From Candidatus Omnitrophota bacterium (GTDB lineage: Bacteria; Omnitrophota; Gorgyraeia; Zapsychrales; JANLHA01), in the NCBI GenBank assembly GCA_963662715.1, contig OY759724.1, positions 1,626,662 through 1,690,661 of the forward strand: 64,000 nucleotides of DNA. Reading direction: 5' to 3'. Below are positions 41,432-64,000 of the stretch, one piece after another (position 1 is the stretch's first letter; every line of letters starts with the position of its first letter). A program made the translations under genes and the position numbers. The notes beneath the pieces were generated by a model that made no database searches, was not told where the DNA came from, and saw only the letters and a program-made list of their open reading frames with translations.

Positions 41432-41452
41432 TATATTGGGATAAAAAGAGAT

Positions 41453-42130: not shown

Positions 42131-42157
42131 TTTATTTAAAGATGGAGGACAAATCAT

Positions 42158-48285: not shown

Positions 48286-49389
48286 CTGGCGCAAATCAGC
48301 ATTAAAAATGTCAGTAAGATATATAAAGGCGGAGTCCGCGCCGTAGATAATGTGTCTCTTGGGGTGGAAAACAAAGAGTTCCTCGTTCTGGTCGGACCAT
48401 CCGGCTGCGGGAAATCAACGACACTTCGCATGATCGCCGGTTTGGAAGAGATATCCGAAGGGAATATCTGGATCGGAGACCGGGTTGTCAATGATGTCCC
48501 GGCCAAGGACCGCAACATTGCGATGGTCTTTCAGAATTACGCTCTTTATCCGCATATGACGGTATTCGAGAATATGGCGTTCGGCCTGAGGTTGCGGAAA
48601 TATCCTAAGGCCGAAATTTCCCGCCGTGTTCATGAAGCGGCGGAAATCTTGGGTATCAAAAATTACCTGGACCGTAAGCCGCGGCAGTTGTCTGGCGGGG
48701 AAAGGCAGCGCGTCGCATTGGGACGCGCTATTGTCCGCAAGCCGGAAGTCTTTTTGTTCGATGAGCCTTTGAGCAACCTGGACGCCAAGATGAGAGTCCT
48801 CATGCGAACGGAAATTCATAAGCTGCGTATGCGTTTGCAGACGACATTTGTTTATGTGACGCATGACCAGACGGAAGCTATGACGTTGGGTGACCGTATT
48901 GCCGTTATGCGCGGCGGAAAGATTCAGCAGTGCGATGATCCGATAACCATTTATGACCGGCCGGCGAACAAATTCGTCGCAAGTTTTATCGGTTCCCCTC
49001 CCATTAATCTTATGGAAGGGCGGATTATCAAAAATGACCGGAAGTATTATTTTGATGAGGGAAAAATCCGGGTTAAAATTGTCGAGGAAATGTTTAAGCC
49101 CATAGCTCCTTATCAGGGGAAAGATGTCATTCTCGGAATACGGGCGGAAGATATTTATGATAAACTTTTTGTTTCCGAGGCTTCTCCGGAAAACACGATT
49201 AAAGCCACGTGTGAAGTTGTAGAGCCTATGGGGTCCGAGGTTTATTTATACCTCAATACCGGGAAGAACACTTTCCTGGCCCGGGTGGGAGCTCATGACC
49301 GGCCGGAAGTCAATCGTGACATGGACCTTGTTTTTGATATGAGTAAGGTGCACTTTTTTGATAAGGAAACTGAAGAGACAATTATTTAA
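48286..49389 (+). CDS. ABC transporter ATP-binding protein, MalK/UgpC/MsmX-like (orphan; no permease adjacent)
   Basis: Walker A 'GPSGCGKSTTLRMIAGLE', 'LSGGERQRVALGRA', 'FLFDEPLSNLD', and a MalK-type C-terminal regulatory domain. The in-frame region upstream of ATG 48352 (IKNVSKIYKGGVRAVDNVSL) is conserved ABC sequence with no ATG/GTG/TTG. A CTG at 48286 follows RBS GAGGG. Confidence 0.85.
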   Translation: MAQISIKNVSKIYKGGVRAVDNVSLGVENKEFLVLVGPSGCGKSTTLRMIAGLEEISEGNIWIGDRVVNDVPAKDRNIAMVFQNYALYPHMTVFENMAFGLRLRKYPKAEISRRVHEAAEILGIKNYLDRKPRQLSGGERQRVALGRAIVRKPEVFLFDEPLSNLDAKMRVLMRTEIHKLRMRLQTTFVYVTHDQTEAMTLGDRIAVMRGGKIQQCDDPITIYDRPANKFVASFIGSPPINLMEGRIIKNDRKYYFDEGKIRVKIVEEMFKPIAPYQGKDVILGIRAEDIYDKLFVSEASPENTIKATCEVVEPMGSEVYLYLNTGKNTFLARVGAHDRPEVNRDMDLVFDMSKVHFFDKETEETII

Positions 49390-50653
49390 TCAAAGGCTTT
49401 CTTCTCTCGTCTTCCTCTCTCTATTGCTTGTAGGTTTTTTTCTCTATTCCTACCTATTTAATTCTATCTATTTTTATCTCATTGCCTCTGGAATACTGCT
49501 GAGCTTGTGTTACCTTGTTTATATTCATATTGATATCACCAGGCAAAAGGCTGCTTTGGAACTGGAAAAGCAGGATTTGACGGAAAAGTCTAATATTATT
49601 GAAGTCGAAATGAACCAGGAATGGAAAAGCATCGAATCTTACTGCAAAAAGATCCTGAATTATTCCCAGTTAAAAGGCCTGACAGAAAAGTTGTGCACAA
49701 GTTTTACCCTGCAGGACACGTCCGCTGTCCTTTCTGCCGAAGTGAATAAATTTTTTGGCGATAAAGAAGTCACAGTTATTTTGTATTTGTTTCATTCCCG
49801 GACAGGCGAACTGGGGTTGTCTTCCTCCCAGAAGGGGGAAATGCGTATTAATATTGAAGCGAAAAACGGGGATATTTATGATCAATGGGTCGTTAAAACG
49901 ATGAAACCCCTGCTCATTGAGGACAGCCGGACGGATTTCCGGTTTGACGTTGAGAAACTGGAACATGCACGCTCTAAAGCTGTCCGGTCTCTTATGAGCG
50001 TCCCGATTGCCTTAGACTCAAAAGCCATTGGTATTCTGAGAGTTGACAGTTCAAAGGAAGGGTATTTCTCCACGGAGGATATCCGTTTGTTGAATACCAT
50101 TGCCGACCTGGGGGCCATGGCTATTGAAAATGCCCAATTGTATGAGCGCGTAGAGGATCTTGCTGTGCGGGACAGCCTGACCGGCTTGTTTTTAAGGAGA
50201 CATTTTTTGGAGCGCGTTACCATGGAAATGGCCCATCATCTCAAATACAACAAGCCTCTTTCTTTTCTTATGATTGATCTGGATGAGTTCAAGCAATACA
50301 ATGACCGTTACGGACATCCTGCGGGAGACATTGTGCTGAAAACCATAGGGACTCTTTTGCAAAAGATATTCGATGACCCGCTGCATTGTATCTGCCGGTA
50401 CGGGGGGGAGGAGTTCGCGGTTCTTCTCCCGGAATGTCCCAAGGCCAAGGCTTTAAGTTTTGCAGAGCAATTGCGTCAAAATATTGAGAAGCAGTCCATT
50501 GTTCTTCGCCGGGAGAAAACATTCGTTACCGTTTCTATCGGTGTCGCGACATTTCCGCAGGATGCTCAACTCAAAGAGGAACTGGTGGGCAAGGCGGATT
50601 TCGCCATGTATAAAGCAAAGGAAAGCGGGCGGAATCAGGTGTGCAGTGCATAA
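49358..50653 (+). CDS. Membrane-anchored GAF-GGDEF diguanylate cyclase
   Basis: N-terminal TM helices, a GAF-like region, then 'RYGGEEFAVLLP' (GGEEF active site) with the upstream 'DxLTG' context 'RDSLTGLFLRRHF'. Confidence 0.85.
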   Translation: MIRKLKRQLFNQRLSSLVFLSLLLVGFFLYSYLFNSIYFYLIASGILLSLCYLVYIHIDITRQKAALELEKQDLTEKSNIIEVEMNQEWKSIESYCKKILNYSQLKGLTEKLCTSFTLQDTSAVLSAEVNKFFGDKEVTVILYLFHSRTGELGLSSSQKGEMRINIEAKNGDIYDQWVVKTMKPLLIEDSRTDFRFDVEKLEHARSKAVRSLMSVPIALDSKAIGILRVDSSKEGYFSTEDIRLLNTIADLGAMAIENAQLYERVEDLAVRDSLTGLFLRRHFLERVTMEMAHHLKYNKPLSFLMIDLDEFKQYNDRYGHPAGDIVLKTIGTLLQKIFDDPLHCICRYGGEEFAVLLPECPKAKALSFAEQLRQNIEKQSIVLRREKTFVTVSIGVATFPQDAQLKEELVGKADFAMYKAKESGRNQVCSA

Positions 50654-50683
50654 GACAGAAGCATACTATCAAGGGCGTGTTTT

Positions 50684-51724
50684 GTGATGGAATTTACCAA
50701 TATTGAACTTCTGGCCGGAGGCGGTTATTTTTCCTGTGTTTTGTGGATTTTGAATTCTATTCACAGGTCTTATATCCGGCAGTATGCCCGGGAAGCGAAG
50801 GATGCCAAGAGGTTGTTCCGGTCTTTGCAGCAGAAGAAAATAGAAATCGATGAGGAAAAAGTGAATTTTGCGGAGGAGGCACAGGAAATATTCACGTTAT
50901 ACGACATGACGAAAGAAATCACGAAAAATTTCAGCGAAGAGGATTCTGTGCGTATTTTTAAAAGCAAATTGTCCGAGAGTGTTTATTGTGAGGACTGCCA
51001 GTTTATCCTCCCGGATACGGAGGAGGTAGAAGTATATGCTCATAAAAAAGGCTTTTCTGTGGTTCCGCTTATAGCCCAGAAACAAATATTAGGTTATTTG
51101 ATCATTAAAGGGTGTTCTCCGGAAGACCTGGAAAAAGTCTCTATCTTGGCCCATCAGCTGGCCTTGGTGCTCCGCAGGGACCGTTTATATAAACAGGTTG
51201 AATCTTTAGCCATAACTGATAGCTTGACGGGAGTTTACACTCGAAGATATATTATGGAACGTTTTAAGGATGAACTGGCCCGCGCCCGGACACAAAATAT
51301 CCCGATATCATTTCTTATGGTAGACGTGGATTATTTTAAGCATTTTAACGATCAGTACGGTCATTTAACGGGAGACCAGATATTAAGAAAAGTTGCGCAT
51401 CTCATACGGGAAAATATCCGGGAAATTGATATTATCGGTCGCTATGGGGGAGAAGAATTTTCTGTTGTTTTGCCTGATGCTGACGGCAGCGGAGCCCAAT
51501 ATGTGGCAGAACGTATGCGGTTGGCGGTTGCAAAATCGGTCGTAAAAGCATATGATACAAAGGTTCGATTAACAATAAGTATCGGGATATCATGCTTTCC
51601 TGCGGACGGAAAGCATCTGGCGGAGCTGATTGACAAGGCTGACTGGGCCTTGTATCGTGCCAAAAAGATGGGCCGAAATAAAGTGTGTGTCTTTGGCATT
51701 TATGATGAGGATGAAAAACATTGA
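50684..51724 (+). CDS. GAF-GGDEF diguanylate cyclase (second copy)
   Basis: 'ITDSLTGVYTRRYI' and 'RYGGEEFSVVLPD'. Confidence 0.85.
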   Translation: MMEFTNIELLAGGGYFSCVLWILNSIHRSYIRQYAREAKDAKRLFRSLQQKKIEIDEEKVNFAEEAQEIFTLYDMTKEITKNFSEEDSVRIFKSKLSESVYCEDCQFILPDTEEVEVYAHKKGFSVVPLIAQKQILGYLIIKGCSPEDLEKVSILAHQLALVLRRDRLYKQVESLAITDSLTGVYTRRYIMERFKDELARARTQNIPISFLMVDVDYFKHFNDQYGHLTGDQILRKVAHLIRENIREIDIIGRYGGEEFSVVLPDADGSGAQYVAERMRLAVAKSVVKAYDTKVRLTISIGISCFPADGKHLAELIDKADWALYRAKKMGRNKVCVFGIYDEDEKH

Positions 51725-51912: not shown

Positions 51913-52860
51913 ATGAATAAGATTACTATTGGGATTGATGTCGGTGGGACCAACACGAAATGCGGTCTGATTGACTTTAAAGGGCGCATCCTTGTCCGGA
52001 GCCGTTTTGAAACGAAAAAATATCTTTCTCAACGGAAGAAACTCGTTGATGCTATTGTAGAAGCCTCTTTAAGATTAATGGATCAATATCAAGGCCCCCT
52101 TAAAGACATTCAAGGTGTCGGTATCGGCCTCCCCGGCTTGATTGATACTCAGCAGGGCCTCGTTAAATTTCTTCCGAATATCCCTGGGTGGAAAAATGTT
52201 CCTTTGAAAAAGATACTGGAACAACGTTTGGGCCTCAGGACCGCTGTTGAGAATGATGTCAACCTCATTACGCTCGGAGAATGGAAATTTGGGGCCGGCC
52301 GGGGTTTTAAAAATATTATTTGCGTTACCTTGGGGACCGGTGTCGGAGGAGGTCTTATTCTGGATGACCGTCTTTACCGCGGAGAGGGGTTTGCCGCGGG
52401 GGAAGTCGGGCATATGCCCCTTTTCCGCAAGGGGGCTCGCTGTAATTGCGGGGGAACAGGATGCCTGGAAAGGTCGGTAGGCAATAAATATCTTTTGCAG
52501 CGTGCCGTAAAATTATTCAGAGACAACATGATAACTTTGGAAGATGTTTTTGCCCGTGCCTCCCGGGGAGATCCTCGGGCATTACGATTTTGGGAAGAAG
52601 TATCCGAACTCATCGGAGACGGGCTGATAGGTGTCGTTAACCTTCTGAACCCCAGACTTATTATTATCGGCGGCGGGGTTGCGAAAAGCCATCGCTTTAT
52701 GTTTCAGACGATAACGAAAGTTATTAAATCCAGAGCCATGATGGTTCAGGGGGCTATGTTTAAAATTAGAAAGGCAAGATTGGGGGATGATGCCGGTCTT
52801 GCGGGAGCGCGTGTTTTGGTTGACGAATTGAATCAAAACCGTTTGAACGAGATGTCATGA
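51913..52860 (+). CDS. ROK-family sugar kinase (glucokinase-like)
   Basis: 'IGIDVGGTNTKCGL' and the zinc motif 'CNCGGTGCLE'. Confidence 0.85.
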   Translation: MNKITIGIDVGGTNTKCGLIDFKGRILVRSRFETKKYLSQRKKLVDAIVEASLRLMDQYQGPLKDIQGVGIGLPGLIDTQQGLVKFLPNIPGWKNVPLKKILEQRLGLRTAVENDVNLITLGEWKFGAGRGFKNIICVTLGTGVGGGLILDDRLYRGEGFAAGEVGHMPLFRKGARCNCGGTGCLERSVGNKYLLQRAVKLFRDNMITLEDVFARASRGDPRALRFWEEVSELIGDGLIGVVNLLNPRLIIIGGGVAKSHRFMFQTITKVIKSRAMMVQGAMFKIRKARLGDDAGLAGARVLVDELNQNRLNEMS

Positions 52861-55001
52861 ACAGGAGAATCTATAAAAAAAAATTTCTATGGAGCACCTT
52901 CCTGATCCCCTGGGCCTGTCTGGGAGTGACGTGCTGGTTCAGTCTATCCCTTTTGATGTCTGCGGGAGCGCAAGAGGACGTCGCCCCGGTGGAAATTAAC
53001 GGCGATCAGGTTGAGTACCTCATCAATGAAAACAAGGTCATTGCCCAGGGGCAGGTGTCCGTTAAGAAAGAGAACGTTACGTTATTGTGTGACAAAATGG
53101 AATTTTCCAACCAATCCAATATGGCTTTGGCTGAGGGGAATGTCGTTCTCATTCAAGGGGATCAGCGGCTCACGGGGGATAAACTGGAGTTTAATTTTTT
53201 CACGATGAAAGGCCACTTTCTGGATACGGCTATGATGGCCAAACCTTTTTTCGGAGCCGGGGAGAAAGTGTCTAAGATCGGAGATGATCATATGGTTCTT
53301 GACCGGGGGTTTATCACAACCTGCGATCATGACAAGCCGCACTTTCGTTTTGTGGCTAAGAGGGTTGATATTTATCCGGGAGACAAAGCCGTGGCCCGGA
53401 ACGTAAAACTGAAAATAGGCGAAGTGCCTATTTTGTATATTCCAAAATATACCCAGGATTTGACGGGAAAAGAGCCGGCGTTTCTGATAACCCCGGGATA
53501 TGACAATGACTGGGGGGCTTTTTTCCTGACCCGCTGGCGGTATGAACTTGTTCCGGAGGTTAAAGGGACTGTTCATCTGGATTACCGGCAGAAAAAGGAT
53601 TTGGCCTGGGGGATTGATACAGATTATGATACAAAGCGTTTCGGGTACGGTCTCATCCGTACTTACTATATGAATGAGCGGGATGTTTCGGCAGACCATT
53701 TTTTTGATGAACGGACACCCCCGACAGTTGAACAGGAAAGATTCAAGGTCGAATGGCGGCACAAGTGGAAAATTTCTGACGACACGGACGCGATTCTGCA
53801 GTATTACAAGCTTAGCGACAGCAATTTTCTTAAAGATTATTTTGAGCGGGAACACGAACAATCGTCCTCTCCGCCCACGTATTTTTTGCTGACCAGAAAC
53901 CTTCCGGTCGGGACTTTGAGCTTTCAGACCGACGCGCGTGTTAACCGTTTTGTCAGCACGGTCGAGCGTTTGCCGGAAATAAGCTATGACCTGCCCAGCA
54001 GGAGGATTGCCGACACGGGATTTTATTTTAAGGATACGGCCACATATTCTAATTTGAGCCTGAAACCGGCCAGCCCCTCGGACAGTTCGGCCAAAACGAT
54101 GAGGGTGGACACGGATCATGAATTGTCTTATCCATTGAAGGTCGGGTTTGTTGAGATGAAGCCGTTTGCCGGGGGAAAGCACACCTATTATAGCCGGACG
54201 ATCGATCCGGACAATTATCATTCCATCCGCGGCATTTTCCGTACGGGAGCTGATTTAAGCACCAAGTTTTATAAGATATATGATACCCACACGGACCGGT
54301 GGGGCCTGAATATCAACCGCCTGCGCCATGTCGTGACGCCGTCTATCTCCTATCTGTACCGCCATGATCCCACGGTCGACAACGAGGAGCTCAACCAGTT
54401 TGATGCTATTGATTCGCAAAACAGAGCCCACTCTATTAATTTTAACCTGGAGAACAAGTTGCAGACCAAGCGGGACGGGAACAGTGTTGATGTCGCCCGT
54501 ATTATCCTTGGGTCGGCTTTTTTATTAAAAGAAGATCCTGGGAAGGGGGGATTCAACAACGTCTCCGGGGATTTTGAAGTGCATCCTTATGACTGGTGGT
54601 CGCTTCACTTTGACACCAATTACGATACGATAGATGAGCATTTGAGCACGGCTAACGTTGACCTGTACATCAATGAGGTAAGCGACAGGTGGTACGGCCG
54701 GTTTGGTAAAAGATATAACCGGGAGGTGGACGATCAAATCACCACGGAAATGGGATACCGGTTGAACCAAAAATGGAGTTTTAATGTTTATCAACGGTAT
54801 GATATCGATTCCGGGACGTTAAAAGAACAGCAATACGGTTTTAAACGGGATCTGCACGCATGGACCATGGACCTGACATTTAACCAGACGCGGGGGGAGG
54901 GCAGCGAAGTATGGGTCGTCATGACGATGAAGTCCTTCCCGGATATAGGATTTGACTTCGGGACGAGTTTTAACCGGAGGAAAGCAGGTTCGCAGAATTA
55001 A
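52857..55001 (+). CDS. lptD: LPS-assembly protein LptD (OstA) homologue
   Basis: Signal/TM N-terminus. OstA-N-like 'EINGDQVEYLINENKVIAQGQVSVKKENVTLLCDKMEF...LTGDKLEFNF'. The long C-terminus is aromatic-rich and beta-barrel-like. Confidence 0.7.
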   Translation: MNRRIYKKKFLWSTFLIPWACLGVTCWFSLSLLMSAGAQEDVAPVEINGDQVEYLINENKVIAQGQVSVKKENVTLLCDKMEFSNQSNMALAEGNVVLIQGDQRLTGDKLEFNFFTMKGHFLDTAMMAKPFFGAGEKVSKIGDDHMVLDRGFITTCDHDKPHFRFVAKRVDIYPGDKAVARNVKLKIGEVPILYIPKYTQDLTGKEPAFLITPGYDNDWGAFFLTRWRYELVPEVKGTVHLDYRQKKDLAWGIDTDYDTKRFGYGLIRTYYMNERDVSADHFFDERTPPTVEQERFKVEWRHKWKISDDTDAILQYYKLSDSNFLKDYFEREHEQSSSPPTYFLLTRNLPVGTLSFQTDARVNRFVSTVERLPEISYDLPSRRIADTGFYFKDTATYSNLSLKPASPSDSSAKTMRVDTDHELSYPLKVGFVEMKPFAGGKHTYYSRTIDPDNYHSIRGIFRTGADLSTKFYKIYDTHTDRWGLNINRLRHVVTPSISYLYRHDPTVDNEELNQFDAIDSQNRAHSINFNLENKLQTKRDGNSVDVARIILGSAFLLKEDPGKGGFNNVSGDFEVHPYDWWSLHFDTNYDTIDEHLSTANVDLYINEVSDRWYGRFGKRYNREVDDQITTEMGYRLNQKWSFNVYQRYDIDSGTLKEQQYGFKRDLHAWTMDLTFNQTRGEGSEVWVVMTMKSFPDIGFDFGTSFNRRKAGSQN

Positions 55002-55040: not shown

Positions 55041-56351
55041 ATGAAAATTTCAATTATCGGATGTGGTTATGTGGGTTTGGTTACGGGGGTGTGTCTAGCA
55101 TCCATAGGACATCATGTCCTTTGCATTGATAATGATTTGGAAAAAATCAAAAAACTGAGGTCCGGGAAAGTTACGATTTATGAACCCGGTCTGCAAGAAT
55201 TGATGAAGAACGCTATCAAGAAAAAGTATTTGAGTTTCAGCAGTTCAGTGCGGGAAGCAACAAGAAAGACCGACGTTATTTTTATCGCTGTCGGGACGCC
55301 TTCCAAGAAAAACGGAGAGGCGGATTTGACCTATGTGGAAAACGTCGCTAGGCAGATCGCGGCGAATATGTCTTCTTATAAGTTGATTGTCGAGAAGTCA
55401 ACGGTTCCGGCCGAGACAGGAAAACGCATTGAACGGACCATCCGGTTGAACCTTCCGAAACGAAGCAAAAAGATTGATTTTGATGTCGCCTCAAACCCGG
55501 AATTCCTCCGGGAAGGCTCTGCCGTTGAGGACTTTATGAAGCCGGACCGCGTTGTCCTCGGGGTGGAATCAGCCAAGGCGGAAAAAATACTCCGTGAAAT
55601 CTACCGCCCGGTTAAGACGCATATCGTTGTGACAAACATCAATTCGGCTGAGATTATTAAACATGCTTCCAATTCTTTCCTGGCGACAAAAATATCTTTT
55701 GCCAATGCGCTATCCCAGATTTGCGACAAGGTCGGAGCGGATATCCTTAAAGTGGCCGAGGGGATGGGGTTTGACAAAAGAATCGGAAAAAGCTTCCTGC
55801 AGGCCGGAATCGGGTATGGGGGCAGCTGTTTTCCAAAGGATGTTGATGCGTTTATCCGTTTGAGCGAGAGAAACGGGTATTCTTTTGCTCTCCTGCAGGA
55901 GGTCCGCCGCGTGAACGAAGAACAGAAAAGCGCGTTTGTCCAGCTGATCGAAGATAAACTGTGGATTCTCAAAGACAAGGTTATCGGGGTGCTGGGGTTG
56001 GCCTTTAAACCCGATACTGATGACATGCGCAACGCCCCGTCCCTGGACATTATCGCGGCCCTGCAGAAGGAGGGCGCTAAAATCAAGGCGTATGACCCGC
56101 AGGCCATGGGGAACGCCAGGAGAGTTCTGAAATCCGTAACATTCTGCAAAGACATCACGAGTTTGGCCAAGGGGTGTGACTGCCTTCTGCTGCTGACGGA
56201 ATGGGATGAATTCAGGAAGTGCAATTTTAAGAAAATCAAACCGCTTATGAGGCAGGCTATTATTTTTGACGGCCGGAATCTCTACCATGCGGATCGTTTA
56301 AGCGAGTTAGGGTATGAATATTATGGTATTGGGCGCGGGATGTTAGCGTAG
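55041..56351 (+). CDS. ugd: UDP-glucose 6-dehydrogenase
   Basis: 'MKISIIGCGYVGLVTGVCLA' Rossmann. 'GGSCFPKD' catalytic Cys. Confidence 0.9.
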   Translation: MKISIIGCGYVGLVTGVCLASIGHHVLCIDNDLEKIKKLRSGKVTIYEPGLQELMKNAIKKKYLSFSSSVREATRKTDVIFIAVGTPSKKNGEADLTYVENVARQIAANMSSYKLIVEKSTVPAETGKRIERTIRLNLPKRSKKIDFDVASNPEFLREGSAVEDFMKPDRVVLGVESAKAEKILREIYRPVKTHIVVTNINSAEIIKHASNSFLATKISFANALSQICDKVGADILKVAEGMGFDKRIGKSFLQAGIGYGGSCFPKDVDAFIRLSERNGYSFALLQEVRRVNEEQKSAFVQLIEDKLWILKDKVIGVLGLAFKPDTDDMRNAPSLDIIAALQKEGAKIKAYDPQAMGNARRVLKSVTFCKDITSLAKGCDCLLLLTEWDEFRKCNFKKIKPLMRQAIIFDGRNLYHADRLSELGYEYYGIGRGMLA

Positions 56352-56365
56352 AAAAGGAGGACGGG

Positions 56366-57667
56366 ATGTCGACTGCTTTAAAGAGAAAAATTAATTCAAA
56401 AAAAGCCAAGATCGCCGTGTTGGGATTAGGGTATGTCGGGCTCCCCCTGGCGGTGAATTTTGCTAAAAAGGGTTTCAGGGTTTTTGGCCTGGACAAGGAC
56501 CAGGACCGGGTTCAGCATATCAATCGTCAGGAGAGTTATATCTCGGATATCCCTCAGCGGGAACTCTCGCGGGTCGTGCAGCGGGGGCTGTTAACAGCGG
56601 GGACGGATTTTTCCGTTATTAAAGATATGGATGTGCTCATCATTTGCGTGCCCACACCGCTGAAAAAGAAATACACCCCGGATATTTCCTATATCGTCGG
56701 CGCTGTAAAAATCATTCGGAAGTATCTCAGCCGGGATACCTTGATCGTTCTGGAAAGCACGACCTATCCCGGGACGACCAAAGAATTGATACTGCCGGAA
56801 ATAGAGAAATCCGGGCTGAAAGTCGGGCAGGATTTTTACCTGTCCTTCTCCCCGGAGAGAATAGATCCCGGCAACAAGGTTTACGATGTTACGAAGATTA
56901 CAAAGGTCGTGGGAGGGGTGACCGCCGAAAGCGGGAAGCTGACAAAATGTCTTTACGAAAAGATTATTCGTGAAATCTGTTGTGTCTCCTCTGCTGATGC
57001 CGCGGAAATGACAAAATTGCTCGAGAACTCTTTCCGGATCATTAATATCGGCTGGATTAATGAGCTGGCGATTATGTGCCATAAGTTCGGCATTGACGTT
57101 TGGGAGGTTATTGATGCCGCCAAAACAAAACCTTTCGGCTTTATGCCTTTTTATCCCGGCCTGGGTGTGGGGGGGCACTGCATCCCTGACGATCCCCTGT
57201 ACCTTTACTGGAAGGCCAAACAATACGGGTTCGGGTCCAAATACATAAAGTTGTCCGCCGACACGAATTCATATATGACACAATATGCCGTGGATCGCTT
57301 AAAAGATCTTTTGAGCCAAGAAGGGAAGTCTTTGGCGGACGCCCGTATTCTTATCCTGGGGGTGACATATAAAAAAGACGTGAAGGATTTGCGGAAGTCT
57401 CCGCCTTTGAAACTGATCAGTCTTTTGCAGGCGGCTCATTGTCAGGTGGATTATCATGATCCGATTATCCCGTATCTCGAATTTTCCAAGATTTATTTGA
57501 AATCCGTGCCGCTTACTCCTAAGATATTAAAGTCTTATGATTGTGTTGTGGTCGCTACGGATCACACTGTGGTTGATTATGCTCTTGTGCATCGCCATGC
57601 CCGTCTGATTTTTGATGTCCGGAACGTTTACAAGAAGATTCAAGATAAAAAAATCATTAAATTGTGA
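56366..57667 (+). CDS. Nucleotide-sugar dehydrogenase (UDP-N-acetyl-D-mannosamine / glucosamine dehydrogenase-like, WecC/TviB type)
   Basis: 'KIAVLGLGYVGLPLAVNFA' and 'GGHCIPDDP' catalytic Cys. Confidence 0.8.
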   Translation: MSTALKRKINSKKAKIAVLGLGYVGLPLAVNFAKKGFRVFGLDKDQDRVQHINRQESYISDIPQRELSRVVQRGLLTAGTDFSVIKDMDVLIICVPTPLKKKYTPDISYIVGAVKIIRKYLSRDTLIVLESTTYPGTTKELILPEIEKSGLKVGQDFYLSFSPERIDPGNKVYDVTKITKVVGGVTAESGKLTKCLYEKIIREICCVSSADAAEMTKLLENSFRIINIGWINELAIMCHKFGIDVWEVIDAAKTKPFGFMPFYPGLGVGGHCIPDDPLYLYWKAKQYGFGSKYIKLSADTNSYMTQYAVDRLKDLLSQEGKSLADARILILGVTYKKDVKDLRKSPPLKLISLLQAAHCQVDYHDPIIPYLEFSKIYLKSVPLTPKILKSYDCVVVATDHTVVDYALVHRHARLIFDVRNVYKKIQDKKIIKL

Positions 57668-57689
57668 AATGTTTTAAAAGGAGTTGCTT

Positions 57690-58637
57690 GTGGGAACTCG
57701 AAAAAAAATTGCCGTCGTTACCGGAGGGGCCGGGTTTTTAGGCAGCCACCTCTGCGACCGCCTGATTGAAGAAGGCTACAAAGTTATCTGCCTGGACAAC
57801 TTCCTGACGGGAAGCGAAAGTAATATTAAGCATTTATATAAAAATAAGAATTTCCGTTTTATGCGACATGACGTTTCCCGGGAAATCAGCATCCCCGGGC
57901 CGGTTCATTTTGTGCTGCATTTCGCATCTCCGGCCAGCCCTATTGATTATCTGCTTTTCCCTATCCCGACTTTGAAAGTCGGCGCTTTGGGGACGCACAA
58001 CACTCTGGGCCTGGCGAAATTGAAAAAGGCCCGATACCTGCTGGCTTCCACATCCGAAGTTTACGGCGATCCCCAGGAACATCCGCAAAAGGAGACCTAT
58101 TGGGGCCATGTGAATCCTATCGGGCCGCGCGGGGTATATGACGAGGCCAAACGTTTTGCGGAAGCCATCACGCTGGCCTATCACCGCTATCACAAGATCG
58201 ACACGAGAATTGTCCGGATCTTTAATACCTATGGGCCCCGGATGAGGATCAAGGACGGGCGAGTGGTTCCTAACTTTATTTTTCAGGCCCTTCACCGTAA
58301 GCCGTTGACAATATACGGGACAGGAAAACAGACGCGTTCGTTCTGTTTTTACACCGATCTTATCGACGGCATCGTGCGGCTGCTGCATTCCCGTTACACC
58401 GGTCCGGTCAATATCGGGAATCCCAGCGAGTTTACCATTTTGCAGTTTGCGGAACTGGTCATACAATTGTCAGGATCGGCCTCCAAGATCACTTATAAAC
58501 CCCTTCCGAAAGATGACCCTCGTCAGCGGCAGCCGGACATTTTTCTGGCTAAGAAAGTGCTTAAATGGAAGCCCGAGGTCCCCTTGCAGGAGGGATTAGA
58601 AAAAACCATGGTGTGGTTTAAACAGCAGAAAATTTGA
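57690..58637 (+). CDS. UDP-glucuronate decarboxylase (UDP-xylose synthase-like SDR)
   Basis: '[31 protein letters not shown]', 'STSEVYGDP', 'YDEAKR'. GTG at 57690 follows RBS AAAGGAG. The ORF-track start is TTG at 57684. Confidence 0.85.
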
Positions 58638-58646
58638 GCGGTTTAT

Positions 58647-59645
58647 ATGAACGAATTCCCTTCCGACAATTCTGCCGGCGTCATTTCAACAGACCAGCTG
58701 ATCGGTCTCTACCGGGAGATGGCCCGTATCAGGCTTGTTGAGTTGAAAGTTGAAGAGCTGTATCATCTTGATGAAATGAAAACTCCTGTCCATTTAGCCC
58801 TTGGCCAGGAAGCCGTGTCGTCCGGGGTCTGCGCTCATCTCGGAACGGATGATCGTATATTCAGCAATCACCGTAGTCATGCCCATTATTTGGCTAAGGG
58901 GGGAGACCTCAAAGCCATGATTGCCGAATTTTACTGTAAGGAAACCGGCTGCGCCAAAGGCCGGGGCGGATCGATGCATTTGATTGATACGGCTGTCGGT
59001 CATTTCGGCTCTTCGGCCATTGTGGGGGGCGGGATCCCGCACGCCGTGGGAGCTGCTTTGGCTTTCAAGATGCAGAAAAAGCCGTGTGTGGCCGTGTCCT
59101 TTTTCGGAGATGCTGCCAGTGAACAAGGGGTGTTCTTTGAAAGTATGAGTTTGGCTGTTTTAAAACGGCTGCCGGTTATTTTTGTTTGTGAAAATAATGC
59201 CTATTCTGTCTGCTCCCATATCTCTGTCCGGCAGCCCAACCCTGACGTGGTCATGCGCCCGCGGGCTTTTGATATGCCGGCAGCACAGGTTGACGGCATG
59301 GATGTTTCAGCTGTTTTTGCCAAGGCTAAAGAAGCTGTGGAATTCTCCCGGCAGGGGCATGGTCCGTATTTGCTGGAGTGCCGTGTGCAGCGCTGGCGGG
59401 GGCATGCGGGCGCCGGTGATCCTTTAAGGGAAAAGTACCGCGCCCCGCAGGACTTAACCCCGGACTGGATGCGGGATCCTTTGGCCGACTGCGAAAAAAT
59501 TTTAATGGCCGATAGACAGGTTAACGGCGAAGCACTCGAAGGTATCAAAGCCGAATTGAAAAAAGAAATCGATCAGGCTTTTCAGTACGCCCAGGAAAGC
59601 CCTTTGCCTGACAAAGGTGATCTGGAAAAGTTCTTGTTTAAATAA
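58647..59645 (+). CDS. Thiamine-diphosphate-dependent dehydrogenase E1 component, alpha subunit
   Basis: 'GGSMHLID...GIVGGGIPHAVGAALA...FFGDAASEQGVFFESMSLA' is a TPP-binding E1-alpha fold. Confidence 0.8.
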   Translation: MNEFPSDNSAGVISTDQLIGLYREMARIRLVELKVEELYHLDEMKTPVHLALGQEAVSSGVCAHLGTDDRIFSNHRSHAHYLAKGGDLKAMIAEFYCKETGCAKGRGGSMHLIDTAVGHFGSSAIVGGGIPHAVGAALAFKMQKKPCVAVSFFGDAASEQGVFFESMSLAVLKRLPVIFVCENNAYSVCSHISVRQPNPDVVMRPRAFDMPAAQVDGMDVSAVFAKAKEAVEFSRQGHGPYLLECRVQRWRGHAGAGDPLREKYRAPQDLTPDWMRDPLADCEKILMADRQVNGEALEGIKAELKKEIDQAFQYAQESPLPDKGDLEKFLFK

Positions 59646-59670
59646 TATATAACCACAGGGAAAGATTTTT

Positions 59671-60711
59671 ATGCCTTGGACAAAGTTGCAGATAGAACGC
59701 GAAGAGCCGGCTTTTGATGAAAATTTGGGACAGGATATCCGCAAACTCAATTTTGGAGAAGCCCTGCGGGAGGCCTTAGACCAGGCTTTGGAACGGGATC
59801 CCAGGGTTTATGCGATGGGGCAGGGCATAAACGATCCCGGAGGTATTTTCGGGACGACCGATGGCTTACGGGAGAAATATGGGAACGAACGGGTCTTTGA
59901 CACTCCCTTAGCGGAAGAAGCCACCATTGGCATGGCCATTGGTTCAGCTATGGCGGGATTGCGTCCGGTGTCTATCCATAACCGGCCGGACTTCCTTATG
60001 ATGGCGATGGATCAGATTGTCAATGCCGCTGCTAAGTGGTGCTACATGTTTGCCGGGCAGGTTCCTATCCCTCTTGTCATCCGGGCGTGTATCGGACGGG
60101 GATGGGGGTCGGCGGCACAGCATTCCCAGTCCCTGCACGGTTTGTTTACGCATGTCCCCGGGCTGAAAGTTGTTCTGCCCAGCACAGCCTATGACGCCAA
60201 GGGCCTGTTCATCACAAGTATCGCTGACGAGAATCCGGTTATCTTTATTGAGCACCGCTGGCTTTTCAAGCATCAAGGCTCTGTTCCCGAGCATGTTTAT
60301 TCGATCCCTTTCGGTCAGGCCACAGTAAAACGCCCGGGAAAAGATATTACGGTGTTAGCCATTTCTCACATGGTTATTGAATCTCTTCGGGCGGCCGAGG
60401 AACTGGAAAAGAAAGGGATAAGTCTGGAGGTTATTGATCCCCGGTCATTACACCCTTTTGATGAGGAGACATTGCTGCAGTCACTTTCTAAAACCGGCAA
60501 GCTGATTGTCGCGGATGTGGACTGGAAGACCGGCGGATTTGCCGCGGAGGTCGTAGCTACTGTTGCTGAAAAGGGGTTTCATGATTTGAAAAAACCGCCG
60601 GTCCGCGTATGTCTCCCGGATGTCCCGACCCCTGCGAGTTACGTCCTGGAAGAAGCTTTTTACAGAGGGGTTCCGGATATTGTGCAAGCGGCGGAAAAAT
60701 TAATGCGTTAA
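59671..60711 (+). CDS. Thiamine-diphosphate-dependent dehydrogenase E1 component, beta subunit (transketolase-like pyrimidine-binding/C-terminal domains)
   Basis: 'VFDTPLAEEATIGMAIGSAMAGLRPV' plus a C-terminal transketolase-C-like domain. Confidence 0.8.
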   Translation: MPWTKLQIEREEPAFDENLGQDIRKLNFGEALREALDQALERDPRVYAMGQGINDPGGIFGTTDGLREKYGNERVFDTPLAEEATIGMAIGSAMAGLRPVSIHNRPDFLMMAMDQIVNAAAKWCYMFAGQVPIPLVIRACIGRGWGSAAQHSQSLHGLFTHVPGLKVVLPSTAYDAKGLFITSIADENPVIFIEHRWLFKHQGSVPEHVYSIPFGQATVKRPGKDITVLAISHMVIESLRAAEELEKKGISLEVIDPRSLHPFDEETLLQSLSKTGKLIVADVDWKTGGFAAEVVATVAEKGFHDLKKPPVRVCLPDVPTPASYVLEEAFYRGVPDIVQAAEKLMR

Positions 60712-60773
60712 AGCGTCCGGGATTTCCCGGAGGCAGAAGGGTTTAAATTAATCAACAGTGAGGTGGGGGTAAA

Positions 60774-61703
60774 ATGAAAATACTTGTTACAGGGGGGGCG
60801 GGATATATCGGCTCTGTGTTGGTCCCGCAGCTGTTATGCGAAAGTTATGAGGTGGTTGTCCTGGATAATTTTATGTATAACCAGACATCTCTTTTGGACT
60901 GCTGTTGTTCGCCCCGGTTGTCCATTGTCCGGGGGGATGCGAGAGACAAGCCGCTGCTGACGGATTTAATGAAAGATGTTGACGCCGTTTTCCCGCTGGC
61001 TTGCCTGACGGGCGCCCCGTTGTGCAAAAAAGATCCCTGGGCAGCACAATCTGTTTTGCTGGAAGCCGTGGAACTGATTCTGCAATTACGCAGCCGGGAC
61101 CAGATGATTATTTTCCCGACCACCAACAGCGGATACGGCGTGGGGCAGAAAGAAAAATTTTGTACGGAAGAAACGCCCCTGAATCCCATTTCTCTTTACG
61201 GCCAGCTTAAAGTACAGGCGGAACAGGCTGTTTTGGCCGCCGGCGGAATTACGCTGCGGCTGGCAACGGCTTTTGGTGTCAGCCCGCGTATGCGGCTGGA
61301 TTTATTGGTTAATGATTTTGTCTACCGGGCTGTCTTTGACCGTTTTGTTGTGCTGTTTGAAGCTCATTTTAAAAGAAATTATATTCATGTGCGGGATGTT
61401 GCCAAAGCCTTCGTGCATGCTTTGCAGAATTTTGAAACCATGAAGAGCGAGGCATATAACGTGGGGCTCAGTGAGGCGAATTTAAGCAAGAAAGAGTTGT
61501 GCGAAGAGATTAGAAAGCAGGTCAGGGAATTTTATATTGTTGAATCTGAGATCGGGGAAGACCCGGATAAAAGGGATTATATTGTGTCGAATGAGAAAAT
61601 AGAAAAAACCGGATACCGGCCGGACGTTTCTTTGCAGAGCGGGATTGCCGAACTTATTAAGGGGTATCAGGTGATCAAAAGAAATCAGTTTGCGAATATT
61701 TGA
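60774..61703 (+). CDS. NAD-dependent epimerase/dehydratase (SDR family)
   Basis: 'MKILVTGGAGYIGSVLVPQLL' Rossmann GxxGxxG. The 'YGQLK' context fits the YxxxK catalytic dyad. Confidence 0.8.
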   Translation: MKILVTGGAGYIGSVLVPQLLCESYEVVVLDNFMYNQTSLLDCCCSPRLSIVRGDARDKPLLTDLMKDVDAVFPLACLTGAPLCKKDPWAAQSVLLEAVELILQLRSRDQMIIFPTTNSGYGVGQKEKFCTEETPLNPISLYGQLKVQAEQAVLAAGGITLRLATAFGVSPRMRLDLLVNDFVYRAVFDRFVVLFEAHFKRNYIHVRDVAKAFVHALQNFETMKSEAYNVGLSEANLSKKELCEEIRKQVREFYIVESEIGEDPDKRDYIVSNEKIEKTGYRPDVSLQSGIAELIKGYQVIKRNQFANI

Positions 61704-61750
61704 GCGCTTTTTTGAGGCTGGCTCTCCTGAGACGGCTTCCCCGGATGGCC

Positions 61751-61779
61751 TTGACCAGCCGGCTGATTCCCCCTATAAT
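61751..61779 (+). promoter_or_regulatory. Sigma-70 promoter TTGACC-N17-TATAAT upstream of the second B12-radical SAM gene
   Basis: TTGACC at 61751-56 and TATAAT at 61774-79, read directly. Confidence 0.6.
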
Positions 61780-61814
61780 TAAAAAATATTCTAGAAAAGG
61801 AGCTTTTGTTTGCT

Positions 61815-63320
61815 ATGACGGATATTGTCCTCGTAAAAGCCAATAATCAAAAAAAGATTTATCAGCATCTCAGCCGTGATTTCACCGGTCTGGAGCCCCC
61901 TTTATGGATCATTCTGACAGCCGCTTTTTTGCGGGAACAAGGCTTTCAGGTTCAGGTGATTGATGCCGAAGTGGAGAATCTCAACGCCCAGGAAACCGTG
62001 CAAAAGGCCCTGTCCTATCAGCCGTTGCTGGTAACGGCCATTGTTTCCGGAACCAATCCTTCGGCTTCAACTATGAATATGCCGGGAGCCAGCGAATTTT
62101 TCAAGGAAATCAAACGTGTTCAGCCCCAATGTCCTACCGCCATATCCGGACTTCACCCGTCTTCTTTGCCGGAACAAACCATGCAGGATGAAGTCATGGA
62201 CTTCCTCTGCGAGGGGGAAGGATTTTCGACATACGCCGAACTTATTAATCAGCTGAAGTCCGGCCGGTCGTTGGGAGAGGATTTTCCGATTGACGGGCTG
62301 TGGTACCGGAAAGGGGACCAAGTGGTTTCTAACCCCCGTGCGGCGAACATCCCTGATTTAGGCGCCCTTCCTATGGCCGCGTGGGACCTTTTGCCCATGT
62401 CCAAATACCGGGCCCATAACTGGCATGCTTTTGATGACGTGGACAAGCGTCAGCCTTATGCTGTTATATATACAAGTCTCGGCTGTCCTTTCCACTGCAG
62501 TTTCTGCTGTATCAACAGTATTTTCGGCGGGCCGGGCATCCGCTACCGCTCTCCGGAGAAAGTCGTCGAGGAAGTGGATTACCTTGTGAAAAATTTTGGC
62601 GTAAGGCATATCAAAATATTGGACGAGATGTTCGCCTTAAAGATCAGTCATGTCGAGGAATTGTGCGACAGGCTTATTGCTCTCGGACATGATTTGAACT
62701 TCTGGGTGTACGGCCGGATCGATACGGTCAAAGAACACATGTTGCACAAAATGAAGCAGGCCGGTATTAACTGGATCGCTTACGGGATAGAAGCCGGGAG
62801 CAAAAAAGTGAGGGAAGGCGTTTCCAAAGGACGTTTTGATCAGGAACAGATCAAGCGGGTCGTTGAGATGACTCATGCCGCGGGCATTCACATTGTCGGC
62901 AACTATATCTTCGGCCTGCCGGATGACGATATGGAAACCATGCAGGAGACTTTAGACCTGGCCAAGGATCTGAATTGCGCCTACGGGAATTTCTATTGCG
63001 CCATGGCCTACCCCGGGTCCCATTTATATGATGAGGCTATCGCCCAGGGGATCCCTTTGCCGGAAACCTGGAGCGGTTATTCGCAGTTCGGAGAGGATAC
63101 GCTGCCTCTGCCGACAAAATATCTTGCCAGCGGGGACGTGCTCCGCTTCCGGGACCGCGCTTTTCAGGAATATCATACAAGCCCGGAATATTTAAATATG
63201 ATCGAAGAGAAGTTCGGCAGCAAGACTGTCGAACACATTAAACAAATGTGCGCCATGAAACTTAAGCGGAAACATTACGATGATACGGAAGGGATCCATT
63301 TTCATAGAGAAATTGATTAA
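61815..63320 (+). CDS. B12-binding domain / radical SAM protein (class B radical SAM methyltransferase-like) within sugar cluster
   Basis: The N-terminal B12-binding region is followed by 'YTSLGCPFHCSFCCINS' (CxxxCxxC). The ATG at 61815 is preferred. A TTG at 61806 is also possible. Confidence 0.85.
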   Translation: MTDIVLVKANNQKKIYQHLSRDFTGLEPPLWIILTAAFLREQGFQVQVIDAEVENLNAQETVQKALSYQPLLVTAIVSGTNPSASTMNMPGASEFFKEIKRVQPQCPTAISGLHPSSLPEQTMQDEVMDFLCEGEGFSTYAELINQLKSGRSLGEDFPIDGLWYRKGDQVVSNPRAANIPDLGALPMAAWDLLPMSKYRAHNWHAFDDVDKRQPYAVIYTSLGCPFHCSFCCINSIFGGPGIRYRSPEKVVEEVDYLVKNFGVRHIKILDEMFALKISHVEELCDRLIALGHDLNFWVYGRIDTVKEHMLHKMKQAGINWIAYGIEAGSKKVREGVSKGRFDQEQIKRVVEMTHAAGIHIVGNYIFGLPDDDMETMQETLDLAKDLNCAYGNFYCAMAYPGSHLYDEAIAQGIPLPETWSGYSQFGEDTLPLPTKYLASGDVLRFRDRAFQEYHTSPEYLNMIEEKFGSKTVEHIKQMCAMKLKRKHYDDTEGIHFHREID

Positions 63321-63349
63321 GATAAGACCTGTTTACCGAAGGGGTAACG

Positions 63350-64000
63350 ATGATTATTAGCCGGACGCCATTTAGAATGTCTTTTTTCGGGGGAGGCACG
63401 GATTATCCTGCCTGGTTTGAAAAACATAAAGGGGCTGTGTTAGCCACGACAATTGACAAGTATTGTTATATTACCTGCCGTTATCTTCCTCCTTTTTTTA
63501 ATCATAAATCCCGTATCGTTTATACAAAAACGGAACTTGTACAAAAAGTCTCTGAAATTGACCACCCGGCGGTCCGGGAAATCCTGAAATTCCTCAAGGT
63601 GCATCAAGGGATTGAAATCCATCACGACGGTGATTTGCCGGCCCGGACAGGATTGGGGTCCAGCTCTTCTTTTACTGTGGGCCTTTTAAACAGCCTGTAT
63701 GCTTTAAAGGGGGTTATGCCGACCAAAGAACGTCTGGCCAAAGAAGCTATCTGTATCGAGCAGGAAAAATGCGGGGACAATGTCGGGTGCCAAGACCAGG
63801 TCCTGGCCGCTTACGGCGGTTTTAATTTTATTGAATTTGGTGGGGCGAAACACTTGCAGGTCCGGAGAGTAACTTTTAAACAGGAAAAAGTCAAGGAGCT
63901 GCAGAATCATCTTATGCTTTTCTTTACGGGTTTCTCCCGGATGGCATCAACGATAGCGGCTCATCAGATAAAGAATATCCCTAAAAAGAAATCCGAGCTC
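63350..64000 (+). CDS. GHMP-family sugar kinase (D-glycero-D-manno-heptose 7-phosphate kinase-like), 3' partial - runs off window
   Basis: My own translation from ATG 63350: 'MIISRTPFRMSFFGGGTDYP...PARTGLGSSSSFTVGLL' has a GHMP ATP-binding motif. No stop occurs before position 64000. Confidence 0.8.
   Translation, partial: MIISRTPFRMSFFGGGTDYPAWFEKHKGAVLATTIDKYCYITCRYLPPFFNHKSRIVYTKTELVQKVSEIDHPAVREILKFLKVHQGIEIHHDGDLPARTGLGSSSSFTVGLLNSLYALKGVMPTKERLAKEAICIEQEKCGDNVGCQDQVLAAYGGFNFIEFGGAKHLQVRRVTFKQEKVKELQNHLMLFFTGFSRMASTIAAHQIKNIPKKKSEL

Follow-up and report, generated by a model that had tools for sequence, protein, structure and literature searches.

Positions 55041 to 64000 of the 64,000-nucleotide stretch of Candidatus Omnitrophota DNA analysed here, referred to as the window, are a single co-directional operon for surface-glycan precursors, built of two modules. 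The first is an ordinary UDP-sugar supply, consisting of a UDP-glucose 6-dehydrogenase (Ugd), a second 6-dehydrogenase of the UDP-N-acetylhexosamine (UDP-HexNAc) type and a UDP-xylose synthase (UXS). The second is a conserved cassette for the E1alpha and E1beta subunits of a thiamine diphosphate (ThDP) enzyme, a short-chain dehydrogenase/reductase (SDR) resembling Cj1427 of Campylobacter jejuni, a cobalamin (B12)-binding radical SAM enzyme and an HddA-like kinase. The favoured reading of this cassette, held at about an even chance, is that the logic of yersiniose biosynthesis is applied to a GDP-heptose: GDP-3-deoxy-4-keto-heptose would receive an acetyl branch at C4 and would then undergo a radical step. 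The C4 oxidation and the C3 deoxygenation are predicted from homology to characterised enzymes, and the ThDP addition and the radical step are inferred. An initial annotation of this DNA had recognised no described pathway with this combination of genes, and this stands: no curated family and, in the literature searched, no paper was found that describes it.

The region holds eight open reading frames (ORFs), all on the + strand (Table 1), with gene identities taken from profile-model searches plus sequence matches in the PDB. All eight genes listed in the initial annotation are present at the same coordinates, and the profile searches agree with their content. The gaps between them are 9–111 bp, and none contains a terminator-like site. 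In L001, L002 and L012, three of the related loci (given here as L numbers), the order ROK-LptD-Ugd-dehydrogenase-UXS-E1alpha-E1beta-SDR-radical SAM-kinase is found, E1beta and the SDR of L012 having been missed by crude ORF picking. The order is kept in part in L006, L008, L013 and L015, which come from other Omnitrophota assemblies. The recurrence of this gene order in Omnitrophota relatives shows that the genes are real and conserved, and not chance ORFs. A split of the cluster into unrelated transcription units had been considered beforehand; the co-directional, tightly spaced genes argue against it, although two functional modules are indeed present.

The second module can be followed well beyond the window. 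Species-representative genomes were scanned with the radical SAM protein, and an alignment of its homologues brought in a further 80 metagenomic loci with identities of 50% or more, giving 91 loci with radical SAM homologues at 43–85% identity, many of them on short contigs. ORFs were called in these loci, clustered and labelled against an annotated reference set. The main radical SAM copy is present in 89 loci, and 26 loci are well flanked, the contig extending 7 kb or more to either side of the radical SAM gene. Near this gene there is an HddA-like kinase in 51 of the 89 loci (21 of the 26 well-flanked), a ThDP enzyme in 47 (20), a DegT-family gene in 58 (at least 19), a Cj1427-like SDR in 43 (at least 18), a nucleotidyltransferase in 35 (18) and a second, Fcl-like SDR (SDRb) in 25 (11). 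Ugd, the second dehydrogenase and UXS are near the cassette in 6 or 7 of the 89 loci and in 6 of the 26, all of them Omnitrophota-like; the remaining 20 well-flanked loci have the cassette without Ugd or UXS. This recurrence of the cassette on its own suggests that the acceptor is likely to be a GDP-heptose derivative, and not an intermediate of the UDP-glucuronate (UDP-GlcA) to UDP-xylose route. The UDP-GlcA, UDP-xylose and acidic-aminosugar route first suggested for the cluster would be that of Ugd, the second dehydrogenase and UXS; the E1 pair, SDR, radical SAM enzyme and kinase belong to the cassette.

Within the genome scan, the Candidatus Omnitrophota radical SAM proteins are 67–85% identical to that of the window, and more distant copies are found in Chloroflexota, Desulfosudaceae, Bacillota and Proteobacteria metagenome-assembled genomes. 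A tblastn search of plasmids gave four records. Plasmid pDMC1 of Solidesulfovibrio magneticus RS-1 carries the full cassette set (radical SAM 50% identical, kinase 59%, E1alpha 48%, E1beta 56%, DegT 51%, Cj1427-like SDR 55%). It also carries two GT2 glycosyltransferases, a NUDIX protein, an Fcl-like SDR, a nucleotidyltransferase, a carrier-lipid-dependent glycosyltransferase, an L-2-hydroxyglutarate oxidase and a SIS protein, and the cluster has neither Ugd nor UXS; its radical SAM, E1 and SDR genes are in the 24.3–39.7 kb part of the plasmid. Plasmid p5 of Azospirillum argentinense Az39 has, at 43–62 kb, a version of the cassette in which the ThDP enzyme is a split transketolase.

The first step of the proposed route would be the formation of GDP-heptose by the HddA-like kinase and an HddC-like nucleotidyltransferase, with GmhA and GmhB also needed, as judged from homology. 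The kinase fragment in the window is 88% identical to the full-length kinase of L001, for which the best structures are heptose kinases (4usk, 3k85 and 4n3o, E 1e-33 to 1e-37), WcbL among them. In the three syntenic Omnitrophota contigs, whose radical SAM proteins are 84–85% identical to that of the window, an HddC-like nucleotidyltransferase gene follows the kinase, and where the ORF was read (L001 and L003) this is followed by a ColD-type 3-dehydratase of the DegT family. The order downstream in L001 is the rest of the kinase, an HddC/ManC-like nucleotidyltransferase, DegT, GT4, GT2, a TPR-polysaccharide deacetylase and a PMT_2-type glycosyltransferase. Homologues of GmhA (SIS) lie inside cassette loci L010, L033 and L089 and on S. 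magneticus pDMC1. A nucleotidyltransferase-HAD fusion is present in L010, and ORFs matching the fusion are present in L085 and L089.

In the second step the Cj1427-like SDR would oxidise C4, with its bound NADH probably recycled by 2-oxoglutarate. The SDR is about 60% identical to 6vo6 (counted on the printed alignment), and the next PDB match has an E value of just 8e-23. The catalytic Y-x3-K is kept, with YGQLK opposite YGIDK. We take 6vo6 to be Cj1427, the GDP-heptose C4-dehydrogenase of C. jejuni, in agreement with the molecule name in the PDB. The gene had been called an SDR epimerase; given the full-length match to 6vo6 (E 6e-116), its product looks like a C4-dehydrogenase rather than a generic epimerase. 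Cj1427 re-oxidises its tightly bound NADH with 2-oxoglutarate, yielding L-2-hydroxyglutarate (PMC10680097). An L-2-hydroxyglutarate oxidase gene, lhgO, is annotated in the S. magneticus pDMC1 cassette (L093, 27441-28643) and homologues are found in L060, L071 and L088, which would fit recycling of the L-2-hydroxyglutarate formed by a dehydrogenase of this type. It is the identity to a characterised enzyme, together with the lhgO genes of these four related loci, that argues for C4 oxidation as the second step.

The third step would be removal of the C3 hydroxyl by the DegT protein, which is encoded past the window end and seen in relatives only, to give GDP-3-deoxy-4-keto-heptose. The L001 DegT has GDP-perosamine synthase as its best structure, and carries His where the latter has the Schiff-base Lys (FSLYAAHIVTS vs FSFFGNKIITT). 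His is found at this position in 52 of 59 DegT homologues in the loci; the other seven, which have Lys, are either second copies or distant from the radical SAM gene. A second DegT subgroup has ColD/WbdK as its best PDB match, with a His-His pair aligned. Replacement of the Lys by His is the hallmark of ColD and E1, which are pyridoxamine phosphate (PMP)-dependent 3-dehydratases. By its sequence, then, the DegT partner of the cassette is a ColD-type PMP-dependent 3-dehydratase.

The predicted product of these three steps has been made in vitro, where Cj1427 and the C. jejuni HS:5 C3-dehydratase in combination give GDP-3-deoxy-4-keto-heptose; such 3-deoxy-heptoses are presented as novel (PMC10680097). 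The C4-dehydrogenase and the C3-dehydratase were brought together in vitro in that case, whereas in the cassette their genes occur together naturally. The capsular GDP-heptose route of C. jejuni (GmhA, HddA, GmhB, HddC, Cj1427, the HS:5 C3-dehydratase, epimerases and C4-reductases) shares with the cassette the HddA- and HddC-like enzymes, the SDR matching 6vo6 over its full length and the His-type DegT 3-dehydratase. At some loci GmhA, the nucleotidyltransferase-HAD fusion, an RmlC-like epimerase and an Fcl-like reductase are also shared. It differs in two respects: no ThDP or radical SAM enzyme is described there (PMC10680097), and it has C4-reductases, which the window-type cassette does not, no SDRb ketoreductase being present in the window-type cassettes of L001, L002 and L012. 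Since the cassette would yield a nucleotide-activated 3-deoxy-4-keto acceptor, and the window type has no reductase to remove the ketone, acetyl branching at C4 is favoured as its fate.

This branching, the fourth step, would be carried out by E1alpha/E1beta, which is proposed to decarboxylate pyruvate and to place the two-carbon acyl-anion equivalent on the C4 ketone, giving a 4-C-acetyl heptose. The ThDP motif of E1alpha (GDAASEQG...ENN) is kept across the cassette copies, as is the cofactor-activating Glu of E1beta (DTPLAEE), which is Asp in one subtype. With the subfamily model for the E1beta of pyruvate dehydrogenase (PDH), which has a cut-off of 321, the window E1beta reaches 319.8 bits. 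The fold, the ThDP motif, the catalytic Glu, the heterodimeric gene pair and this near-threshold score are all shared with the E1 of the PDH complex. With these catalytic motifs intact, and E1alpha scoring well against its own model (Table 1), the pair might be the E1 component of a standard dehydrogenase for pyruvate, acetoin or branched-chain 2-oxoacids, present in a glycan operon by chance. This is scarcely credible, however, as the association with E2 and E3 is absent at the loci. E2 and E3 genes just past the window end, one of the findings that the initial annotation had named as refuting its reading, are absent from the syntenic L001, L002 and L012, where glycan genes follow instead. 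There are none within 10 kb up- or downstream in L001, L002, L006, L008 or L012, nor in pDMC1, and none was recognised in any cassette locus inspected. The position of the pair among sugar genes is kept across phyla, where it is interchangeable with ThDP enzymes that are not of the E1 type, and truncated pairs without the E1beta C-terminal domain occur. Judged by gene context, the window pair fits a stand-alone E1 pair inside a nucleotide-sugar cluster that produces 4-keto-sugars.

Three unrelated ThDP architectures are found in the cassette: E1alpha/beta in 31 loci, a split DXS-like 'transketolase' (TK) in 17, and a protein of the YerE/acetolactate synthase (ALS) type in L025, L034 and L073. 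E1 and TK were scored together at one locus only. The ALS-type protein is beside an E1* pair in L034 and beside the C-terminal part of a TK in L073, and is the sole ThDP enzyme in L025. That the ThDP enzymes are interchangeable points to one shared reaction, the carboligation of an acyl anion derived from a 2-oxoacid. Because the E1 pair of the window is PDH-like, pyruvate is the probable donor.

Several variants of the ThDP genes were seen among the loci. The YerE/ALS-type genes adjoin the radical SAM gene (L025 3828-5615, with TPP_enzyme_N, M and C domains; L034 8202-9992; L073 4116-5783). Some cassette E1 pairs are divergent or truncated. A miniature pair of 198 and 172 aa, without the E1beta C-terminal domain, adjoins the radical SAM gene in L009 (8594-9715), a locus that also carries more B12-radical SAM paralogues. 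A divergent pair in which the beta subunit has Asp for the activating Glu is found in L007 (1-2941), L034 (2590-6900) and L047 (597-5000). It is preceded in all three by an HMGL-like/homocitrate-synthase-like enzyme, and in L034 and L047 by a class I/II aminotransferase too; these upstream genes may supply a longer 2-oxoacid donor. A candidate YerE-like enzyme in L013, an ORF of about 600 aa at the position of the E1 pair, was rejected since it groups with asparagine synthases.

The acceptors that have been established or proposed for branching by ThDP enzymes are 4-keto (3-)deoxy sugars (PMC9306805, PMC4802897, PMC10338323). In yersiniose A biosynthesis, YerE puts the two-carbon unit of pyruvate on CDP-3,6-dideoxy-4-keto-glucose, and erwiniose and caryophyllose are proposed to be made likewise from longer 2-oxo acids (PMC9306805). 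These acyl-branched pathways (YerE/YerF, ErwE, MyGE) share with the cassette the logic of C4 oxidation, C3 deoxygenation and ThDP-dependent addition of an acyl anion to the C4 ketone, and a YerE/ALS-type protein is found in the three cassette loci given above. The scaffold there is a CDP-3,6-dideoxyhexose, whereas a GDP-heptose is envisaged here; C3 deoxygenation there is of the E1/E3 type rather than the ColD type. YerE itself is a single ALS-like chain (TPP_enzyme_N, M and C), in contrast to the PDH-E1-type heterodimer of the window, which is further accompanied by a B12-radical SAM enzyme.

Stand-alone PDH-E1-like pairs have been proposed for branching in the biosynthesis of paulomycin (Plm8/Plm9), avilamycin, for which there is genetic evidence, and everninomicin (PMC4802897, PMC10338323). 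The pairs AviB1/AviB2, Plm8/Plm9 and EvdU5/EvdS3 resemble that of the window in being E1 pairs without E2/E3 amid nucleotide-sugar genes, with a proposed two-carbon transfer from pyruvate to C4. The comparison is one of gene context, and the actinomycete pairs differ in serving antibiotic deoxysugars on dTDP- or UDP-sugars, with no heptose or radical SAM partner. Two-carbon branching by a thiamine enzyme, suggested in the initial annotation, is thus plausible and has a closer precedent in these E1-like pairs; the UDP-derived acceptor suggested with it is less likely than a GDP-heptose.

Such a UDP-linked acceptor deserves consideration nonetheless. In the everninomicin and avilamycin clusters Ugd and UXS stand beside the E1 pair, as they do in the window, and for everninomicin it is proposed that EvdS6, which is UXS-like, converts UDP-GlcA to the acceptor UDP-4-keto-xylose, to which the PDH-E1-like EvdU5/EvdS3 then transfers an acetyl unit (PMC10338323). 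By this logic, that of eurekanate, E1alpha/beta would act on a UDP-4-keto-pentose from Ugd and UXS to give a 4-C-acetyl pentose, like the one proposed for avilamycin and everninomicin, and the heptose genes would be a separate matter. The gene order Ugd-dehydrogenase-UXS-E1alpha-E1beta is what would be expected in this case, and the gap between UXS and E1alpha is only 9 bp in the window, the two genes overlapping by 4 bp in L001. However, the window UXS is about 58% identical to human UXS1 (counted on the printed alignment) and looks like a canonical, dedicated UDP-xylose synthase, with no pointer to a keto-releasing enzyme like EvdS6. Ugd and UXS are also confined to the six Omnitrophota-like loci among the 26, whereas 20 have a ThDP enzyme alongside the radical SAM and heptose genes, and the S. 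magneticus orthologues of E1alpha and E1beta are in a cluster that has neither. A pentose acceptor is therefore considered quite improbable.

The ThDP enzyme might instead act elsewhere on the heptose route, so that the sugar chain would be extended and no branch formed at C4. The carbonyl could be at C6 or C7, generated by an AprD4-like radical SAM enzyme, or the acceptor could be a ketose-phosphate precursor before the kinase, compare the lincosamide octose. In the PDB the radical SAM enzyme is matched best by AprD4, a diol dehydratase; the Fcl-like reductase of many cassettes could use up the C4 ketone, and some of the cassette ThDP enzymes are annotated as transketolase. Against this, the window E1 is PDH-like, and with pyruvate as donor it would give a 1-deoxy-ketose, which is not isomerisable to an aldose. 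Nearly every cassette also has a ColD-type 3-dehydratase, which together with the C4 oxidase would make the classical branching acceptor. The annotation as transketolase is not borne out either. When 15 of the split proteins (including those of L010, L028 and L033) were aligned to E. coli TktA, in whose numbering residues are given, S385 was replaced in all 15 (by Pro in 12), H461 was Gly and D469 was Ser in all 15, and R520 was Gly in 9, with the cofactor residues retained. A DXS-like loop, GxGxxYDxSGPTHH, takes the place of the canonical transketolase loop. The loss of these phosphate-binding and acceptor residues means that the split TKs of the cassette are not sugar-phosphate transketolases, and for the same reason a role as mere suppliers of sedoheptulose-7-phosphate was rejected. 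Taken jointly, the two chain-extension options are judged unlikely, and branching at C4 of a GDP-heptose is still the preferred reading.

In the fifth step of that reading, the B12-radical SAM enzyme would carry out a radical step on the scaffold, either C-methylation or C-C ring closure. The protein is 100% identical to database protein P0001, which is listed on a contig of 3.36 Mb; TTG at 61806 is another possible start. The CxxxCxxC motif, CPFHCSFC, is at residues 224-231 (nt 62484-62507). The best curated models are HpnJ (TIGR03471), at 174 bits against a cut-off of 577.6, BchE, at 143 bits, and a P-methyltransferase family, and the best PDB match is AprD4 (6fd2, E 4e-18; 89 bits with the NCBIfam AprD4 model). 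No curated family cut-off is reached, and no hopanoid genes are in the neighbourhood. As the scores are far under every curated cut-off, the enzyme belongs to a separate, unnamed subfamily, distinct from HpnJ. It has the B12-binding domain and the CxxxCxxC core, by which class B methyltransferases are recognised, and both are also shared with HpnJ and BchE (ring formation), AprD4 (diol dehydratase) and GenK and Fom3 (C-methylation). The class B enzymes GenK and Fom3 methylate carbons adjacent to hydroxyls. The same features occur in HpnJ, BchE and OxsB, which do not methylate, so that methyl transfer, as suggested in the initial annotation, is not established by them. Radical formation of cyclopentane carbasugars has been proposed for HpnJ and for the calditol synthase Cds (PMC9092360). 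Both C-methylation and ring closure would fit the window enzyme on present sequence evidence.

A protein search seeded with the A. lipoferum radical SAM enzyme gave at least 7984 clusters at E values of 1e-80 or below, with A. halopraeferens, Ferrovibrio, Arenibaculum and Magnetospirillum moscoviense among the named carriers; the named matches listed in this Azospirillum-seeded search are Alphaproteobacteria only. Several gene clusters hold multiple B12-radical SAM paralogues. A second B12-binding radical SAM protein in the window (24475-25917, 480 aa) is unrelated; it is preceded by an ABC-transporter ATPase (22200-23078) and then by a 462-aa protein without a Pfam match (23075-24463).

The multiple paralogues would also suit a different role, in which the product of the ThDP and radical SAM enzymes is a non-carbohydrate substituent of the glycan, such as an unusual acyl or alkyl group originating from a 2-oxo acid, and the sugar skeleton is left untouched. 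The HMGL-like enzyme or aldolase and the aminotransferase upstream of the divergent E1 genes suggest small-molecule 2-oxoacid chemistry of this kind. These genes fit equally well with donor supply for acyl-branched sugars (PMC9306805), however, and the components that recur in the cassette include no recognised acyltransferase, ligase or carrier protein. A substituent of this sort is accordingly regarded as improbable, and C4 branching of the heptose is preferred.

If the radical step following C4 branching is a ring closure, the product could be a C9 carbocyclic sugar of the caryose type, with a 4,8-cyclo-3,9-dideoxy-nonose skeleton. After addition of the acetyl group at C4, the HpnJ-like radical SAM enzyme would abstract a hydrogen from C7, and a cyclopentane would close onto the acetyl carbonyl. 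A heptose and a two-carbon unit make nine carbons, and a bond between C7 and the acetyl carbonyl would give the caryose skeleton without a further redox enzyme; the closure is redox-neutral, and the window-type set has no ketoreductase. The window-type genes would supply just the chemistry for caryose, namely a heptose route, a 4-oxidase, a 3-dehydratase, a two-carbon donor enzyme and a radical enzyme. The biosynthesis of caryose was stated to be unknown in a 2022 review (PMC9092360). The Fcl-like reductase in many cassettes and the lack of a nearby ThDP enzyme in A. lipoferum weigh against this outcome, which is viewed as a long shot. A bolder and speculative variant is that a ThDP acyl-anion enzyme is naturally paired with a radical SAM enzyme in one C-C bond-forming sequence.

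A number of points count against C4 branching of a GDP-heptose. All of its steps are predicted from genes. The window stops inside the kinase, and the nucleotidyltransferase and the ColD-type gene are inferred from contigs whose radical SAM proteins are only 84–85% identical. The kinase scores 148 bits against the HddA cut-off of 600, and the nucleotidyltransferase 140 against the HddC cut-off of 300; with scores so far under these cut-offs, the sugar could be other than a heptose. GmhA and GmhB are absent from the 64-kb window in tblastn searches with cassette-linked SIS and HAD proteins. The C4-dehydrogenase reading of the SDR depends on 6vo6 being Cj1427, with which the PDB molecule name agrees. 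About 40% of the well-flanked cassettes carry the Fcl-like reductase SDRb, and if this simply reduces the C4 ketone, no branching acceptor is left. A. lipoferum 4B has radical SAM, kinase, NUDIX and Fcl-like genes only, with no ThDP enzyme nearby, so the radical step is not strictly dependent on the ThDP step. The close spacing of UXS and E1alpha, with their overlap in L001, fits the rival UDP-4-keto-xylose acceptor.

The product would be transferred into a lipopolysaccharide (LPS)-related glycan by the glycosyltransferases encoded downstream in relatives. A small GT2 protein is found there together with a PMT_2 or carrier-lipid-dependent GT-C glycosyltransferase (L001 15739-20275; L093 12161-13992 and 23528-25054). 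This pairing resembles an ArnC/ArnT-like two-step transfer, and may similarly proceed by way of a polyprenyl-phosphate carrier.

The features of the operon and its flank are listed in Table 1. The promoter-like sequence, TTGACC-17-TATAAT, is a consensus match only; it falls in 61704-61814, the sole sizeable intergenic gap of the cluster, and could be an internal promoter for the radical SAM gene.

Table 1. Positions of the operon genes, a candidate promoter and the adjoining LptD-like gene in the window
Feature	Position	Strand	Basis
LptD-like LPS-assembly outer-membrane protein (context)	52857..55001	+	LptD_N and LptD_2; PRK03761 E 3.5e-23
Ugd, UDP-glucose 6-dehydrogenase (TuaD type)	55041..56351	+	three UDPG_MGDP_dh domains; NF047673 E 3e-163
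Second nucleotide-sugar 6-dehydrogenase, WecC/TviB/WbpA-like UDP-N-acetylhexosamine class	56366..57667	+	TIGR03026 E 4e-129
UXS, UDP-glucuronate decarboxylase (UDP-xylose synthase)	57684..58637	+	human UXS1 2b69/4gll, E 2.7e-109, full length
E1alpha, PDH-like ThDP subunit	58647..59645	+	PF00676 E 2e-62; TIGR03182 306 bits; human PDH E1alpha E 2e-49
E1beta, ThDP subunit	59671..60711	+	Transket_pyr and Transketolase_C; Geobacillus PDH E1beta E 2e-77
SDR, extended	60774..61703	+	PDB 6vo6/6vo8 E 5.9e-116, residues 2-308
Promoter-like site	61751..61779	+	11/12 consensus positions
Cobalamin-binding radical SAM	61815..63320	+	PF02310 and PF04055
HddA-like GHMP sugar kinase, N-terminal 217 aa	63350..64000 (window end)	+	GHMP_kinases_N; HddA best model, E 4e-27

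The first module is expected to supply UDP-GlcA, the uronic acid of a UDP-HexNAc and UDP-xylose. Orthologues of its Ugd, at 84–86% identity, occupy the same position in L001 and L002. The nearest named models of the second dehydrogenase are UDP-ManNAc and UDP-GlcNAc 6-dehydrogenases; its best equivalogs, UDP-ManNAc dehydrogenase (293 and 241 bits) and TviB (228 bits), all score under their cut-offs.

Directly upstream of the cluster are an LptD-like gene and a ROK kinase, and LptD is 5' of Ugd also in L001, L002, L006, L012 and L013. Just upstream of these, at 49358-51724, are tandem diguanylate cyclases, one GAF-GGDEF (49358-50653) and one GGDEF (50684-51724). Elsewhere in the window there is a heat-shock block at 35847-45349, with Hsp20-like, ClpB-like, HrcA-like and GrpE-like proteins, DnaK and DnaJ, as judged from the translations. 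A predicted multi-pass membrane protein of 1008 aa (29244-32270) has a weak VIT-domain match (E 1e-4) that is under the Pfam cut-off. Nearly all of the long gene-like ORFs in positions 1-64000 are on the + strand. GC skew is above 0 in every 2-kb bin and the cumulative skew climbs monotonically. This strand bias and skew suggest that the window lies in one replichore with strong co-orientation.

Modification of heptoses in bacterial glycans has so far been known mainly from Campylobacter, Yersinia and Burkholderia, as epimerisation, deoxygenation and reduction. If the proposed route is correct, the cassette adds C-C bond formation to GDP-heptose chemistry, by means of thiamine and B12-radical enzymes. 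It is widespread: in public data the distinct relatives of its radical SAM protein number at least about 8000, and cassette loci come from Omnitrophota, Chloroflexota, Desulfobacterota, Bacillota and Alphaproteobacteria. It is also present on plasmids of S. magneticus RS-1 and of the plant-growth-promoting A. argentinense Az39, both of which are cultivable and genetically tractable. Should branching and ring closure both be true, the cassettes would be a source of new, tertiary-alcohol-forming ThDP carboligases and of a radical SAM reaction new to sugars, and could explain the origin of rare higher sugars such as caryose.

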